Positions 8,850-59,392 of a stretch of DNA of 63,847 bases are shown here, piece after piece. Positions within the stretch are counted from its first letter, which is position 1. The number at the start of each line of letters is the position of its first letter. A model generated the notes under the pieces. That model saw nothing but the letters and a program-made list of their open reading frames with translations. It was not told where the DNA came from and made no database searches. The DNA is from Patescibacteria group bacterium (lineage in GTDB: Bacteria; Patescibacteriota; Patescibacteriia; UBA10025; JAHIVO01), in assembly GCA_034678405.1 (NCBI GenBank), contig JAXDBW010000011.1, positions 1 to 63,847 of the forward strand. The letters are read 5' to 3'. The position numbers and the translations under genes were made by a program.

Positions 8850-9959
8850 ATGAAACGGATCATTATCGTTATCCTCACTATTGTGGCCCTTGCGGCCTTG
8901 ATCGCCGCGCATGCCTGGCTCTGGTATGCGATAGTCTTTTTGTTTGAGATTCATGCCCTGACGACCAGATGGATTCTGGGGGTTGCTCTGGGTGTTTTGG
9001 CCATGGGCTTCTTACCCGCTACGTACGTAGTGCATAAACGAGAAAATCGGACAACGTCATATATATATATTGTGATGGCGACGTGGCTCGGGACAGCACT
9101 GTATGTCGCGATTGGAACCGCCGCCGCAGCTCTAGCCCTCTGGATATTTCCCTGGCAGGATCATCAGATATTTGTCGGCGCCGCCGCCCTGGCACTGGCG
9201 ATCGCCTATGCCGGCTATGGCGTGTGGAATACCCAGTATCCTCGATACAAACGAGTCACGCTTCCCGCTGACCAGTATCCTGAGGCATGGCGCGGTAAAA
9301 AAATTATTCACCTCTCTGATATCCATCTCGGGGTAGTGCACCACATTGGCTTCATGCGCTGGGTGGTAAATAAAGTAAATAAAGAAAATCCCGATATCAT
9401 ATTTATCACTGGCGACTTGTATGATGGGGTCGGCCGGGAGCTCGGGCAGATGGCGGCACCCCTAAAGGAATTCAATCCACCAATGGGAGCGTACTATATT
9501 ATAGGAAACCACGAGACCTATGTGGGCTTGGATCGAGTGTTTGCGGCAATTGCAGATTTGCCCATACGCACCCTGCGCAATGAAAATGTTGAGCTGGAGG
9601 GGGTGCAGATCCTCGGCATTGACTATCATTTGCCAGGCAAAAAGAATGACGAGCGGGCGGTGCTGGATACTTTGGATCCTGAACGACCGAGTATCGTCCT
9701 TTTTCACGAACCGAAGCCTGACGTGGTGGAATATGCTAGTACAAAGAATGCCAGACTCTTCCTCGCGGGGCATACGCACAAAGGTCAGCTGTGGCCGTTC
9801 AATTTCATTACGCGCTATATTTACAAACGATTTCACTACGGACTGTCACGTGCCGGTAACATGATGGTCTATACGTCACCCGGCGTCGGCTCTTGGGGGC
9901 CGCCCATGCGTACGGGTAATCACCCGCAAATTGTTGTATTAACCATAGGAAATAAATAG
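8850..9959 (+). CDS. Membrane-bound metallophosphoesterase
   Basis: Four N-terminal TM helices followed by the calcineurin-like motifs HLSDIHLG, GDLYDG, GNHE, GHTH. Confidence 0.85.
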   Translation: MKRIIIVILTIVALAALIAAHAWLWYAIVFLFEIHALTTRWILGVALGVLAMGFLPATYVVHKRENRTTSYIYIVMATWLGTALYVAIGTAAAALALWIFPWQDHQIFVGAAALALAIAYAGYGVWNTQYPRYKRVTLPADQYPEAWRGKKIIHLSDIHLGVVHHIGFMRWVVNKVNKENPDIIFITGDLYDGVGRELGQMAAPLKEFNPPMGAYYIIGNHETYVGLDRVFAAIADLPIRTLRNENVELEGVQILGIDYHLPGKKNDERAVLDTLDPERPSIVLFHEPKPDVVEYASTKNARLFLAGHTHKGQLWPFNFITRYIYKRFHYGLSRAGNMMVYTSPGVGSWGPPMRTGNHPQIVVLTIGNK

Positions 9960-52838: not shown

Positions 52839-54449
52839 ATGCCTTCATCAGTTAGTCATTCTTATATTACTGATCTCGTGGCGCTTCGTCCAGTCGACGA
52901 GGAGTCGCTCAGGACAGTCAAACGTGATTTGGCGACTAAACATCGCACCACGATTTTTGCGAATGCAGATATCCTGAAGGTATATCGTGAGGTGGTGGCT
53001 GAAGCTGATCGGGACCCTGCATTACTGAAAGTACTCCGCAAACGAGACGTGCGGACATTGTCCGGTATCGCGCCGGTCACGGTCCTGACGAAGCCCTATC
53101 CCTGTCCAGGCCGGTGTGCCTACTGTCCGACTGAGGCTCGCATGCCGAAAAGCTACATCGCCTCGGAGCCAGCCGCCCAGCGCGCCCTCAAACTACAGTT
53201 TGATCCCTATGAGCAAATGGCCCGGCGGATTGAAGCATTCGAGGCAAACGGACATAGTGCGGATAAAATTGAACTCATTGTACTTGGTGGTACGTGGTCA
53301 TACTATGACGAGGAATATCAAGAAACGTTTATCAAGGGCCTTTTCGATGCGGCTAATGGATTTGCGTCTGACACGCTCGAGGAAGCTCAGACGAAGAACG
53401 AGACGGCCCAACACCGTATCATCGGCCTGACGCTTGAGACCCGGCCGGATTATGTAACGAAGGAGGAGCTCTGGCGGATGCGGCGGTATGGGTGTACGCA
53501 TGTGCAGATTGGCGTGCAGACGCTTGATCAGCAGGTATTGGATTTGATCAAACGGGATGATACCGTGGCTAACATTGCTCGGGCGACCGCCATGCTGCGT
53601 GATTTTGGGTTTAAGGTGACGTATCATCTCATGCCAGGCTTGCCCGGCGCCACACCCGAGGGGGACTATCAGGTATTTAAAAAAGTATTTAGCGATCCTG
53701 GGTTTCAGCCGGACATGCTGAAGATTTATCCCACCGTAGTGGTTAAAAGCGCGCAGATTTATCAGTGGTTTCAGGAGGGGAAATACAAACCATATGAAGG
53801 TGAGCAATTGATCGAGCTGCTGGCGCGGATAAAGAAAGATATCATCCCGCCCTATGTCCGGATCAATCGCTTGATCCGGGATATTCCCGGCGATGAAATA
53901 GAGGGGGGCAATCTCGTGACCAACCTGCGGCAGATCATGCACCAGCGTGGCATCACGTGTCAGTGTATCCGCTGTCGCGAAGTCCGTGATGCTGTGCCGG
54001 AGTCCGAGGCCGAGCTGGTGGAGCGGACCTATCGAGCGGGCCAGGGCACAGAGCATTTCCTTAGTTTCGAAAACGCAGACAAGTCAAAGCTGTATGCGTT
54101 TACGCGATTGCGGTTGCCTGATATGAAGCATCGTAAAACACAAAAGCTAGAGGTCATCCGCTTTTTCGACAAGCAAAAAATTACCATGACCGGCAATGAA
54201 CTGGCGTTTTCTCCAGATACGGCGCTGATCCGAGAATTACATACCTATGGGGAGCTTATCCCGGTCGGATCCGGGCGCTCAGCCACGCAGCACATCGGTT
54301 TTGGCAAGCGGCTGATGGCTCGCGCTGAGGAGATAGCCCGTGAGCACGGATATGCCCGATTGGCTGTGATTTCGGGAATTGGCGTGCGGGATTATTATCG
54401 AAAATTAGGGTATACGCTCCAGGATACCTACATGGTGAAGGAATTATAG
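52839..54449 (+). CDS. Elp3-family radical SAM/GNAT tRNA wobble-uridine modification enzyme
   Basis: CPGRCAYCP radical SAM cluster motif, Elp3 core, and a C-terminal GNAT domain (QHIGFGKRLMARAEEIAREHGY). Confidence 0.88.
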   Translation: MPSSVSHSYITDLVALRPVDEESLRTVKRDLATKHRTTIFANADILKVYREVVAEADRDPALLKVLRKRDVRTLSGIAPVTVLTKPYPCPGRCAYCPTEARMPKSYIASEPAAQRALKLQFDPYEQMARRIEAFEANGHSADKIELIVLGGTWSYYDEEYQETFIKGLFDAANGFASDTLEEAQTKNETAQHRIIGLTLETRPDYVTKEELWRMRRYGCTHVQIGVQTLDQQVLDLIKRDDTVANIARATAMLRDFGFKVTYHLMPGLPGATPEGDYQVFKKVFSDPGFQPDMLKIYPTVVVKSAQIYQWFQEGKYKPYEGEQLIELLARIKKDIIPPYVRINRLIRDIPGDEIEGGNLVTNLRQIMHQRGITCQCIRCREVRDAVPESEAELVERTYRAGQGTEHFLSFENADKSKLYAFTRLRLPDMKHRKTQKLEVIRFFDKQKITMTGNELAFSPDTALIRELHTYGELIPVGSGRSATQHIGFGKRLMARAEEIAREHGYARLAVISGIGVRDYYRKLGYTLQDTYMVKEL

Positions 54450-56416: not shown

Positions 56417-57535
56417 TTATGCCAGCGGATTACCGACGGCATCGCCGATCAAGTCGCACATGCGACAGGCGACACAGCCCGCCCGATCGGTAGAGGTCAT
56501 GCCAGCCCGTCGCATCTGGTCGGCTGTGTAGTGCAGAACACTGAGGAATTCGGCCCAGTCGGCCTGTGCAGCGAAGGGATACCCGGGGATGTCCTCAAAC
56601 GTCCGCCCGGCTAGCGGGGAGGGGATGACCCCGTAGCTGATAGCGGTGTCAATACCCTCCTTGAGAGAGTCGATCGGCTCCGTCCCGACGACGAAACACG
56701 ACGACACCCGGCCGCGACCAAATACCTCGACTCCGCGCTGGAATGCGTCGAGATACTGAGTGCGGGGACAGAGATTATCCTTGCCGGGGAGGGTACTCCG
56801 GCGAATGGTCGGAGCCCAGCATTCCAGATTCATCATCAGGCTGGCGGCTCCCGCCTCGGCCAGCCGATTGATCCAGCGGAGATCTTCAGGCGGCGTGATT
56901 TCGATGGCAATCGGCAACTGCGGGAACCGCTTGGCGATGACCGTCACGACCGGTACCATGAGCTCCATGCCCCGCCCAGCGTGCAGCGTCATGCCGCCAT
57001 TCAGGGTGAGGCCACCGTACTGGTCCAGGGGAATGCGCTCAAGCGCGGCGATGATGAGTTCCGGTTTTTTTCTGATCAGCCGTGGGTCACGGTTCGGCAG
57101 GGAGCGGTTAATCACGCAGAAGGTGCACTGCGTACCATGGCTGAAGAGCGTGCAGTCTTCGTAGATTGAGCCAGCCAGCTGGCGATTGTGTGCGGTGAGG
57201 ATCTGTGTGATGGGAAACCCGAGCACCTGTCGGTCATACCAATCCGGTGCCGGCAGTACCGTCGCGGTGGTCAGCGTCAGGCTGGCTAGCTGGATAGCGA
57301 TCCGGTTATCGGCCTGGTGTACTGCGGTGAGCACGGTCGGTCGGCTGTGGTAGATGGGCGCATTGACGTAGAGGCCACTGGCCAGTCGCATTTTGCCGCC
57401 GGAGCTGAGGCCTCCTCGTTTGATGCCATGAGGGTTTTGGGCGGCGAAGAGCGCCGCAGTGGCGTCATCCACAGCCATGCCCTCACAGAGCAGCTGTGCT
57501 TTTACGCGCAGTTCAGGGAGTGACACAGTATTCAT
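56417..57535 (-). CDS. Radical-SAM-like Fe-S enzyme with a non-canonical CX8CX2C motif and a C-terminal CxxCxxC motif
   Basis: Start moved to ATG 57535 (AAGGAG 7 nt upstream; MNTVSLPELRV...). Contains ...YEDCTLFSHGTQCTFCVINRS... and a TIM-barrel-like alternating pattern. The C-terminus has GCVACRMCD. Confidence 0.55.
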   Translation of the reverse strand: MNTVSLPELRVKAQLLCEGMAVDDATAALFAAQNPHGIKRGGLSSGGKMRLASGLYVNAPIYHSRPTVLTAVHQADNRIAIQLASLTLTTATVLPAPDWYDRQVLGFPITQILTAHNRQLAGSIYEDCTLFSHGTQCTFCVINRSLPNRDPRLIRKKPELIIAALERIPLDQYGGLTLNGGMTLHAGRGMELMVPVVTVIAKRFPQLPIAIEITPPEDLRWINRLAEAGAASLMMNLECWAPTIRRSTLPGKDNLCPRTQYLDAFQRGVEVFGRGRVSSCFVVGTEPIDSLKEGIDTAISYGVIPSPLAGRTFEDIPGYPFAAQADWAEFLSVLHYTADQMRRAGMTSTDRAGCVACRMCDLIGDAVGNPLA

Positions 57536-57650
57536 GCGAATACTCCTTTTAGTAAATAGTGATGATGGCAACCCACAGTATGGGCCTGTCGATCGGATGA
57601 TTCCGATCGAGCCGTTTGTGAAGGAACAATTGTACGTATTGATCAATGAA

Positions 57651-57815
57651 CAAATACAAAAACACCTCTTCTGAACGAAGAGGCGCGTGGGAAATCGCTA
57701 TACTATGCTAGACCATGTTTGTGTCCACGCGTACAGAGACCCCTTCGTCAGAAGCGGTTGCATGACCACCATGATGGCAGTTGGAGTTCTGTTGTCGCAG
57801 ATATATATTCATAGC
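57651..57815 (-). promoter_or_regulatory. Leader with terminator/antiterminator alternative structures (candidate riboswitch or attenuator)
   Basis: Minus-strand terminator CCTCTTC-GTTCA-GAAGAGG plus UGUUUUUGUAUUUG (57651-57683). The upstream segment GAAGGGG (within 57740-57757) can pair with the terminator 5' arm. There is an additional 7-bp helix, 57684-57690 with 57725-57731. Confidence 0.45.
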
Positions 57816-57821
57816 AACAGC

Positions 57822-57880
57822 ATTCTACAGCAGGAGCCACGCTCTGTCAAATTGACAAACAATATCGAATAGTTTAGGAT
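57822..57880. promoter_or_regulatory. Back-to-back divergent consensus promoters sharing the palindrome TGTCAA-A-TTGACA
   Basis: Minus strand: TTGACA (57845-57850), 17 bp, TAGAAT (57822-57827). Plus strand: TTGACA (57852-57857), 17 bp, TAGGAT (57875-57880). Confidence 0.6.
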
Positions 57881-58096
57881 AGCGATATGAGACATATATC
57901 TAACATTTCCTGGCAAAAAATAAGTCGCCGCTAGCGAAGTAGGTTTTCTATTGTCATGAAAACGCTACTCCCGCCCAGGGCGATTTTTTATTTGTCCTTA
58001 TCTTATTATCTATGGAATTTCAGTTCAAAACCAAAGCAACATTTTTCTGGCGATAGGTCGTCAGTAGCGTTTTTATTCACTCAATCACATATATCT

Positions 58097-59392
58097 ATGA
58101 ACCCAATAACCTTATCGGCACGCGAGGTGCCGACCCACTACTACAATATCCTCGCTGATTTACCCGTCGCGCCCGCGCCACCCCTGCATCCGGGTACGAA
58201 AGAGCCACTCGATCCATCAGCTCTGCTTGGATTGTTTCCGAAGGCACTCGTGGAACAAGAAACTAGTACTGAGCGGAAGATTGAAATTCCTGACGACGTG
58301 CGGACACTCTACCAGCGCTATCGTCCGACACCACTCTATCGGGCTGACCGGCTTGAGCGTGTGCTCGATACACCGGCTCGTATTTATTACAAATACGAGG
58401 GCGCGTCTCTGACCGGCAGCCACAAGCTCAATACCGCTCTGGCTCAGGCCTACTACAATAAGCAGGAGGGCATCACCACCCTGACGACGGAGACGGGCGC
58501 GGGGCAGTGGGGGATGGCGCTGTCGCTCGCGGCAAAACTATTCGGCATGGAGGCGCTCGTGTACTATGTCCGGCTGCATTTCCAGCAGAAACCATATCGA
58601 GTGAGCTATATGCGGATGCTGGGTGCGCAGGTACTCGCCTCACCAAGTCGTCAGACGAAGATCGGGCGGCAGTATCTCACGCAGGATCCAAATCATCCAG
58701 GCAGTCTCGGTATCGCCATCAGCGAAGCGATGGAGGCAGTCCAGGACGAACACACGAAGTACTCACTCGGTAGCGTGCTCAATCACGTACTCCTACATCA
58801 GACGGTGATTGGCCAGGAAGCGATGCGGCAAATGGAAAAAGCCGACGCCTATCCTGACGTCATCTATGGGTGCTTCGGCGGGGGGAGTAATCTCGCAGGC
58901 ATCAGTCTACCGTTTATCGGACAGAGCATTCGACAGAAACGACTAGTCCGAGTCGTGGCAGTGGAGCCGGAGAGTTGTCCCACCCTTTCCCAGGGGAAGT
59001 ATGATTATGACTTCGGGGATACCGCGGCTACTACACCGCTGCTCAAAATGTACTCGCTTGGTGCTGACTTCATTCCGCCGCGGATCCAGGCTGGCGGGCT
59101 TCGGTACCATGGGGCAGCTCCGCTGATCAGTCATCTCGTAGATCAGGGATACATTGAGCACGAAGCCGTTTCTCAAACGGCAGTCATGGAAGCGGCTCAG
59201 CAGTTTGTCCAAGCTGAGGGGATCCTCCCTGCTCCCGAGTCGGCGCACGCCATCCAGGCAGCGATCGACGAGGCACGTCGGTGCCAGGAATCAGGCGAAG
59301 CGAAAACAATCCTGATTAACATCTCAGGCCACGGATTTCTTGACTTGGGTGGGTATCAGGAGTTTCTCGAGGGAAAACTGGTAGTAAAGTAG
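58097..59392 (+). CDS. TrpB2-type (TrpB-like) PLP-dependent enzyme
   Basis: Start moved to ATG 58097 (MNPITLSAREVPTHYYNILADLP). YRPTPLYRADRLE...YYKYEGASLTGSHKLNTA...ETGAGQWG matches the tryptophan synthase beta-2 family. Confidence 0.88.
   Translation: MNPITLSAREVPTHYYNILADLPVAPAPPLHPGTKEPLDPSALLGLFPKALVEQETSTERKIEIPDDVRTLYQRYRPTPLYRADRLERVLDTPARIYYKYEGASLTGSHKLNTALAQAYYNKQEGITTLTTETGAGQWGMALSLAAKLFGMEALVYYVRLHFQQKPYRVSYMRMLGAQVLASPSRQTKIGRQYLTQDPNHPGSLGIAISEAMEAVQDEHTKYSLGSVLNHVLLHQTVIGQEAMRQMEKADAYPDVIYGCFGGGSNLAGISLPFIGQSIRQKRLVRVVAVEPESCPTLSQGKYDYDFGDTAATTPLLKMYSLGADFIPPRIQAGGLRYHGAAPLISHLVDQGYIEHEAVSQTAVMEAAQQFVQAEGILPAPESAHAIQAAIDEARRCQESGEAKTILINISGHGFLDLGGYQEFLEGKLVVK

Follow-up and report, generated by a model that had tools for sequence, protein, structure and literature searches.

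Candidate histidine and tryptophan leader-peptide attenuators between a variant radical SAM gene and a TrpB2 gene in Patescibacteria

YerC has been identified as the repressor HisR. Histidine enhances binding of this repressor to DNA in vitro, and HisR controls genes of histidine biosynthesis and transport, often together with its own gene, with a published operator consensus of cacTTTAn6TAAAgtg (Ashniev et al. 2022, PMC9413887). Candidate His attenuators have been reported in the Bacillus cereus group, Peptostreptococcaceae and Erysipelotrichales (PMC9413887). TrpB2 enzymes are described as O-phosphoserine-dependent tryptophan synthases by Busch 2014, as cited in PMC11917138. We compare these systems with a locus on contig JAXDBW010000011.1 of Patescibacteria group bacterium (63,847 nt; this whole stretch is the window, and positions count on its forward strand), where a variant radical SAM gene and a TrpB2 gene diverge from one spacer. 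An earlier interpretation made from the letters alone (the sequence-only reading) had proposed one control region serving one two-enzyme module. This model is largely replaced here by one of two adjacent, separately attenuated starvation genes, with His codons in one leader and a Trp codon in the other. Two distinct leader-peptide switches that sense amino acids seem to lie in the spacer, histidine for the radical SAM gene and tryptophan for TrpB2, and we put the probability at about 65% that these are back-to-back attenuators that make a His-regulated orphan radical SAM gene and a Trp-regulated TrpB2 gene independent, starvation-induced units.

The two genes and the ribosome binding site found for one of them are as follows.

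56417..57535, minus strand: variant radical SAM gene, 372 amino acids (open reading frame list, NF045502, AlphaFold/Foldseek)
57543..57547, minus strand: Shine-Dalgarno sequence AGGAG, 7 nt before the radical SAM ATG (read from the sequence; present in locus L001 too)
58097..59392, plus strand: TrpB2, a TrpB-like pyridoxal phosphate enzyme, 431 amino acids (NF009057, TIGR01415, PF00291)

TrpB2 has no Shine-Dalgarno sequence. An in-frame ATG at 57956 was ruled out as its start because the NCBIfam alignment begins at residue 4 of the 58097 product. The start codons at 57535 (minus) and 58097 (plus) thus enclose 561 bp, which with the true starts is the longest gap in the window or among the longest, as had been noted before, and all the feature coordinates given earlier check out. 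GC content is 42% in the spacer vs 52% in the window. A scan of 57400-58250 with the Rfam covariance models found no riboswitch, T-box or known leader family, and its miRNA and snoRNA matches (E>=0.15) are at chance level.

On the minus strand, the spacer contains these elements in the order of the predicted transcription.

57822..57850, minus strand: promoter TTGACA-17-TAGAAT (promoter scan, 11/12 matches)
57708..57812, minus strand: His leader open reading frame MNIYLRQQNSNCHHGGHATASDEGVSVRVDTNMV, 34 codons (sequence; homologous reading frames with HH or HHH in relatives)
57740..57757, minus strand: hairpin 1:2, CCGCTTC-tgac-GAAGGGG (fold energies; equivalent hairpins in relatives)
57657..57686, minus strand: intrinsic terminator 3:4, stem GCGCCTCTTC / GAAGAGGTGT (57686-57662) plus U-run (terminator scan)

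With 9 nt between the -10 box and the leader ATG, the predicted mRNA is nearly leaderless. Two adjacent His codons (HH, 57776-57771) and a third (57764-57762) stand shortly before region 1 of the first hairpin (CCGCTTC, 57757-57751), whose partner is region 2 (GAAGGGG, 57746-57740). Regions 3 (CCTCTTC, 57683-57677) and 4 (GAAGAGG, 57671-57665) form the terminator stem and are followed by the U-run. Region 2 can also pair with region 3, with an energy for the 2:3 duplex of -16.2 vs -15.7 kcal/mol for the terminator. A reading frame with adjacent His codons, hairpin 1:2 and a terminator give the anatomy of a His leader-peptide attenuator. With His-tRNA scarce, a ribosome stalled at the His codons would cover region 1 and leave region 2 free to pair with region 3, and RNA polymerase would continue into the radical SAM gene, so that histidine starvation would switch it on.

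We sampled synteny around homologs of the radical SAM gene in 18 genome loci and 47 metagenome loci (L numbers below denote individual loci). Small reading frames with HH or HHH upstream of the radical SAM gene occur in 21 of 34 bacterial loci, where dinucleotide shuffles give 3.6 +/- 1.6 (at most 10); none of six archaeal loci has one. In the relatives these reading frames lie between the radical SAM gene and an upstream regulator gene, hisR, and begin on the stop codon of the latter (ATGA or TAATG); in L043, L047, L050 and L051 the hisR reading frame itself carries the HH(H) stretch as its C-terminal tail. Examples of the leader peptides are listed here.

L004: leader peptide MINYNSYIQNHHQQAPLH
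L023: leader peptide MDYYTNILNHHHQAPLH
L011: leader peptide MNYSIIINNNHHKTLLC
L018: leader peptide MNYRSNNQSHHQKNSSVLKRLL
L010: leader peptide MENFKIIINHHRQASFLFS
L019: leader peptide MTIQNLFAKTYHHHISPSLGEVD
L041: leader peptide MNRFNNLNNFDHHANSSLEGVG

A hairpin follows the HH reading frame within about 15 nt in the relatives, and then a terminator hairpin with a U-run, which occupies the same place as in the window and shows three compensatory pairs. In a five-sequence alignment 84.7% of cells pair, vs at most 68% with the partners slid, and four pairs have compensatory changes. The best partner of the terminator 5' arm is the 3' arm of hairpin 1:2 in all 18 loci compared, and this 2:3 complementarity beats shuffles (p<=0.05) in eight of the 18 (window p=0.20).

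Two other explanations of the small reading frame bear on these peptides. A short reading frame beside a radical SAM gene is the usual layout for ribosomally synthesized and post-translationally modified peptides (RiPPs), and it could encode a precursor that the enzyme modifies. We consider this highly improbable: the peptides share only the HH, some HH stretches are tails of the regulator, a terminator separates the reading frame from the enzyme gene, archaeal homologs have no such reading frame, and Pfam and NCBIfam profile searches found no SPASM or RRE domain in the radical SAM protein. The second explanation starts from leader composition. Ahead of the His pair, Asn, Tyr and Asp codons are unusually frequent in L004, L011, L018, L023, L041 and the window (57812-57771), and over 40% of codons in those leaders are NAY codons (Asn, Tyr, Asp or His), the set read by queuosine-modified tRNAs, with MNRFNNLNNFDHH, MDYYTNILNHHH and MINYNSYIQNHH as examples. 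The leader could therefore sense the queuosine status of tRNA instead of histidine, with the enzyme acting in queuosine salvage, an idea that draws on general queuosine biology and to which we give very little credence. Neighbours of the HisR and HisG-like types indicate histidine in particular, the richness in Asn and Tyr may merely reflect A/T-rich, unstructured RNA, and a profile search gave no match to known queuosine enzymes.

A second set of elements lies on the plus strand.

57852..57880, plus strand: promoter TTGACA-17-TAGGAT (promoter scan, 10/12 matches)
57887..57934, plus strand: Trp leader open reading frame MRHISNISWQKISRR, 15 codons (sequence; homologous leaders in relatives)
57922..57990, plus strand: long terminator-like hairpin of the TrpB2 leader (minimum free energy folds, window and L018 alike)
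58047..58073, plus strand: second terminator-like hairpin CTGGCGATAGGTCGTCAG plus T-run, 25 nt before the TrpB2 ATG (terminator scan, minimum free energy fold)

Here the leader ATG follows the -10 box by 6 nt, again a leaderless arrangement, and the single Trp codon is at 57911-57913. The last leader codons contain the 5' arm of the long hairpin, AAGTCGCC (57922-57929), and a T-run follows the 3' arm GGGCGATT; the hairpin encloses a smaller one, AGTAGG...CTACT. In L018 and L071 a homologous leader, MHQIVNNCWQKISRR, also has a single W and stands 6 nt behind TTGACA-18-TATTAT at the equivalent place, and nucleotide identity between the window and L018 is 77% over 57902-58200, and the leader region within it (57902-58096), also 77% identical, is about as conserved as coding DNA. 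Adjacent Trp codons are present in the leaders of L050 (MLEIIFTKIGLSAWWQKSRWRD, ...SAWWQKSRWRD, with WW plus W) and of L073-75 (MKFTYSNTNWWNMNRL and variants, ...NWWNMNRL / ...NWWILNRL), where the window and L018 have one W. All of these Trp-codon leaders (window, L018/L071, L050 and L073-75) come directly after a promoter and are followed by hairpins and U-runs. At every one of these loci the end of the reading frame forms the 5' arm of a long hairpin, with a U-run after the 3' arm, the hairpin of L073-75 being analogous to that of the window. The plus-strand leader fits a Trp-codon attenuator, though with one Trp codon in the window and L018: stalling at the Trp codon would occlude the 5' arm of the long terminator hairpin and allow read-through, and tryptophan starvation would thus switch TrpB2 on. 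A terminator-like hairpin on the other strand, TCGCTAGCGGCGA plus T-run (57937-57925, minus), also lies inside the TrpB2 leader and is conserved in L018, and the order of A-run, hairpin and U-run there looks bidirectional.

Between the two leaders lies the palindrome that the sequence-only reading took for the centre of the shared control region.

57845..57857, no strand: palindrome TGTCAA-A-TTGACA (TGTCAAATTGACA), two abutting -35 hexamers (sequence, promoter scan)

This 13-nt palindrome is indeed present and perfect, and the divergent promoters predicted around it are the two best sites within the 4 kb scanned. By our own arithmetic about 0.01 such palindromes of two consensus -35 boxes are expected in 64 kb. 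As one shared control region it did not hold up in relatives. L018 has only the TTGACA on the TrpB2 side, its homology with the window, found by blastn from the TrpB2 side only, reaching no further than 57902. In L073-75 the sequence is TGTCAA-N8-TTGACA, with the hexamers 8 bp apart, a variable sequence between them and a separate -10 box for each arm, that of the left arm being TACAAT at 17 nt on the other strand. Because of this arrangement in L073-75, the simplest reading of the palindrome is two back-to-back -35 boxes, 1 bp apart, and not a shared operator; the spacer would be a pair of independent leader-peptide transcription attenuators behind back-to-back sigma-70-type promoters.

The repeated motif (A/C)ATATATCT, which had been reported in both predicted transcripts and in front of TrpB2, held only in part. 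Two plus-strand copies are exact (57893-57901 and 58088-58096), and the minus-strand copy shares the 8-mer alone (57806-57799, with a T in front). The pattern occurs four times in the window vs 0.93 expected. The minus-strand ATATATCT makes up codons 3-5 of the His leader, as the first plus-strand copy, CATATATCT, makes up codons 3-5 of the Trp leader, and their place in the first codons of two leaders, one for His and one for Trp, points to separate control by different amino acids. The third copy of CATATATCT, 58088-58096 (plus), abuts the TrpB2 ATG; it was considered as a functional element and set aside, as it is not conserved in L018.

The sequence-only reading would have the radical SAM enzyme and TrpB2 act in one pathway, under common control of a regulator bound at the shared TGTCAA-A-TTGACA and at the ATATATCT boxes. 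We regard this as distinctly unlikely, even though the palindrome is perfect and the genes are neighbours in three lineages and two arrangements (divergent in the window and L018/L071, co-directional in L050), an adjacency that a rough estimate places above chance for genomes of about 1 Mb (p ~0.01). Adjacency of the two genes recurs in two further lineages: L018/L071/L072, where TrpB2 is divergent and 86% identical, and L050, where it lies downstream in the same direction and is 56% identical. Most radical SAM loci, however, have no TrpB2 (about 30 other distinct loci, within 6-10 kb), and the TrpB2 loci L073-75 (74% identical) have no radical SAM gene nearby. The palindrome is absent from L018 and split in L073-75, the ATATATCT copies lie within leaders and are not conserved in L018, the regulatory codons differ, and in L050 the genes are separated by a terminator, a promoter and the WW leader that TrpB2 has to itself.

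By the neighbourhood data, the conserved partner of the radical SAM gene is a YerC/HisR-type regulator gene and not TrpB2. In about 25 distinct bacterial loci, a gene of this type for about 90 amino acids lies directly upstream on the same strand. Its products belong to the YerC/YecD family (TIGR02531, 67-96 bits, cutoff 42) and score below the cutoff for TrpR proper; among their best PDB matches is 3G1C, which is HisR of E. eligens (3e-18), and E. coli TrpR is not matched. The hisR genes of relatives have upstream palindromes that overlap promoters (TAGTGTTTTAATACATTAAAACACTA in L018/L004, GTATTAACGTGTTAATAC in L016), of a TTTAA..TTAAA type that resembles the cacTTTAn6TAAAgtg consensus. The relatives may therefore have an autoregulated histidine repressor as an extra layer upstream of the radical SAM gene, a layer that would be gone from the window. 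At low histidine the gene would be turned on through two independent signals, HisR and its His-codon leader, and this argues for a role of the enzyme in histidine supply. Only hisR recurs broadly among the neighbours; genes for an Elp3 homolog and a methyltransferase recur only in close relatives, as shared synteny.

Several observations on these neighbourhoods stand apart. The Elp3 homolog of the window (52839-54449, plus strand) is full-length and bacterial (TIGR01211, 542 bits), and Elp3, methyltransferase and radical SAM genes are syntenic in the window, L004, L009, L011 and L018. A perfect DnaA-box-like motif, TGTGGATAAC (complement of TTATCCACA), precedes the -35 box of the hisR promoter by 5-10 nt in L018 (~9245-9256), L004 (~8975-8986), L011, L023 and L010, inverted in L016; the window has no such motif. 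L070 (6-734) carries two divergent YerC/TrpR-family genes upstream of a radical SAM homolog, on a contig that is labelled Promethearchaeota but carries mreB and is probably a misbinned bacterial contig.

A number of points weigh against the attenuators. In the window, the 2:3 antiterminator is not the minimum free energy fold, and its score does not stand out from shuffles (p=0.20). The His leader runs 13 codons past region 2, whereas the leader stop of relatives sits at or just after hairpin 1:2. Leaders have only two or three His codons, and the window has one Trp codon. Classical his leaders have more His codons. The terminator lies 120 nt upstream of the radical SAM ATG, which leaves room for an internal promoter. 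An HH reading frame is missing from the 440 nt searched in 13 of the 34 bacterial loci, and in L033 it lies about 2 kb upstream, beside hisR. The window has no hisR by tblastn, and an HisR-type operator (TWTTAAYNNRTTAAWA, up to two mismatches) is absent from the spacer 57536-58096, with three chance-level matches elsewhere in the window. A degraded hisR or trpR gene in the gap was also sought and rejected, tblastn with 12 homologs at E<=100 giving only noise, and since the window promoter has no convincing homology to the hisR promoters of relatives, we do not claim a clean hisR deletion. The neighbours of the radical SAM gene are heterogeneous (HisG-like, LOG-like, nucleoside phosphorylase, racemase), and His regulation does not reveal the reaction. 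The source organism is uncultured. The transcripts, the stalling logic and all regulatory function are inferred from sequence.

Some of these points would suit an explanation with no attenuators, in which the minus-strand unit is the remnant of a deleted hisR with its terminator (or a small RNA), the radical SAM promoter lies downstream and the plus-strand hairpins are a bidirectional terminator. The 120-nt interval and the atypically long window leader favour it, as do the position of the terminator just downstream of hisR in relatives, where it could simply end hisR, and the conserved minus-strand hairpin at 57937-57925. We find it unlikely: in-frame HH and HHH reading frames are strongly over-represented, they keep a fixed position with respect to hairpin 1:2, WW leaders turn up repeatedly at TrpB2 loci with no upstream gene on that strand, and the promoter scan found no promoter-like site between 57655 and 57535. 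Two back-to-back attenuators remain our preferred reading of the spacer.

The radical SAM protein itself belongs to no characterised family. It scores 159.4 bits against the NCBIfam model NF045502 'variant_rSAM' (cutoff 125), 21.3 bits against Pfam PF04055 over residues 136-249 (gathering cutoff 29.5), and 136 bits against TIGR04043, the MSMEG_0568 family (cutoff 303.7). The AlphaFold model (pLDDT 94.3, pTM 0.92) has a partial TIM-barrel fold like that of solved radical SAM enzymes, and the top 27 Foldseek matches in the PDB are all radical SAM enzymes (probability 1.0, TM 0.35-0.47), among them RlmN, HydE, LipA, PylB, HemN, NifB, HydG and viperin. With NF045502 above its cutoff and structural matches to this superfamily only, it is a variant radical SAM protein, in line with the radical-SAM-like label proposed earlier. 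Neither Foldseek nor a profile search against PDB sequences, where the best match was ThiH (E=0.009), gave a close solved relative; the matches are to radical SAM enzymes in general. The cysteine motifs read from the sequence are both real. In place of the canonical CX3CX2C the protein has C128-X8-C137-X2-C140, kept in all 33 aligned homologs and thus a family trait and not an error, and the C-terminal CxxCxxC is C354-X2-C357-X2-C360, conserved across the same 33. A total of 95 homologs are detectable, almost all in Patescibacteria and Micrarchaeota/DPANN.

The 5' untranslated region of this gene has two further features. Between terminator and start codon, a perfect 8-bp hairpin, CGATCGGA-atca-TCCGATCG (57609-57590, minus strand), has no U-run after it. 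A second small reading frame, GTG-MGCHHHYLLKGVFA (57576-57532, minus strand), contains three His codons (HHH) and spans the Shine-Dalgarno sequence, with a TGA stop that overlaps the radical SAM ATG; as a regulatory HHH reading frame it is probably due to chance, being not conserved in the closest relative, L001.

Genes found beside hisR and the radical SAM gene hint at a nucleotide- or base-linked substrate. A HisG-family gene (PF01634, 40 bits, cutoff 25.5) stands between the two in two lineages, L014/L053 and L076, a SLOG/LOG-like protein is encoded in the radical SAM operons of L052, L015 and L010/L029, a uridine/purine nucleoside phosphorylase gene lies directly upstream of the radical SAM gene in a Micrarchaeota locus, and an amino-acid racemase gene overlaps the radical SAM stop in L014. 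In L076 (1-1160 and 5605-7937), the second lineage with a hisR, HisG-like and radical SAM operon, the radical SAM protein is distant (29% identity to that of the window), and the contig also carries a histidyl-tRNA synthetase gene 5 kb upstream. The enzyme would supply or salvage histidine, possibly acting on a ribosylated nucleotide or base. An undescribed route that makes or salvages histidine in genome-reduced Patescibacteria (and DPANN archaea), with the NF045502-type enzyme as its key step, perhaps a (phospho)ribosylated purine or imidazole compound as substrate and TrpB2 as an analogous one-enzyme fix for tryptophan, is a tentative proposal that we think possible but would not expect to be right. 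It is prompted by the dual His control (HisR and a His-codon attenuator) and by the operons shared with HisG-like, LOG-like and nucleoside-phosphorylase genes.

The plus-strand protein is a bona fide TrpB2, as the earlier interpretation had it, with 670.7 bits against NF009057 (cutoff 366), 608.4 against TIGR01415 (cutoff 518.85) and a match to PF00291, and with only 158 bits against the canonical trpB model TIGR00263 (cutoff 392). It would salvage indole into tryptophan, with serine or O-phosphoserine as the second substrate. In L050, a 131-amino-acid SerK/SbnI-like ParB_N protein (a putative serine kinase) is encoded after the WW leader, and its stop overlaps the TrpB2 start, which fits TrpB2 enzymes as users of O-phosphoserine, on the citation of Busch 2014 in PMC11917138, and suggests an operon of a serine kinase and an O-phosphoserine-dependent TrpB2. 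This stretch of L050 (7195-7760, 3' of the radical SAM gene) has a separate promoter with a TrpR-type CTAG palindrome (GCACTAGTTTAATAGTAC), and the order after it is WW leader, two terminators, SerK/SbnI-like gene and TrpB2.

Patescibacteria and DPANN archaea are regarded as lacking amino-acid biosynthesis, and to our knowledge there is next to no information on how these organisms detect or overcome a shortage of amino acids. The locus suggests that Patescibacteria use classical ribosome-mediated attenuation, here with leaderless leader reading frames, that TrpB2 is a tryptophan-starvation gene in these bacteria, and that an orphan radical SAM family widespread in the Candidate Phyla Radiation and DPANN belongs to a histidine regulon. 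The main lead is this histidine link, the regulatory elements themselves being of known type. It would be the first functional clue for an orphan family common in ultra-small bacteria and archaea, and it turns the annotation 'radical SAM protein' into a testable hypothesis on histidine supply in episymbionts. Our literature search found no link of TrpB2 with radical SAM or of radical SAM with histidine in Patescibacteria or DPANN, and nothing on MSMEG_0568 or on attenuation in the Candidate Phyla Radiation. What has been observed directly is the set of sequence elements, how far these are conserved and which families the proteins belong to.

Set against the described systems, the radical SAM protein resembles the TIGR04043 MSMEG_0568-family and NF045502 proteins in having the C-X8-C-X2-C motif and the C-terminal Cys cluster, and it is about 27% identical to TIGR04043-type proteins. 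It differs from TIGR04043 in its score below the cutoff, in its distribution (Patescibacteria, Micrarchaeota) and in its context (hisR, His leader). We know of no reaction assigned to either family. TrpB2 is like known members in scoring above the TIGR01415 and NF009057 cutoffs, in having no adjoining trpA and in the SerK-like partner of L050, and is unlike them in the Trp-codon leader of its own; no other trp genes were seen in the fragment, which was not searched exhaustively. The relatives, with an autoregulated YerC/HisR-type gene and a palindromic operator as predicted from their sequences, are like the HisR regulons of Ashniev et al. 2022 (PMC9413887). They differ in that the apparent target is a variant radical SAM gene instead of his biosynthesis or transporter genes and that the phylum lies outside that study, and the window differs further in having neither hisR nor operator. 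With E. coli hisL and trpL, and with the candidate His attenuators of PMC9413887, the locus and its relatives share a short reading frame with adjacent His-His(-His), Trp or Trp-Trp. Immediately after it come predicted alternative hairpins and a terminator with a U-run. Unlike those systems, the candidate leaders belong to Patescibacteria-type genomes and have only two or three His codons or, on the tryptophan side of the window, a single Trp codon. They begin 6-9 nt from the -10 box or overlap the stop codon of hisR, and each would regulate one orphan enzyme in a probable auxotroph and not a biosynthetic operon.

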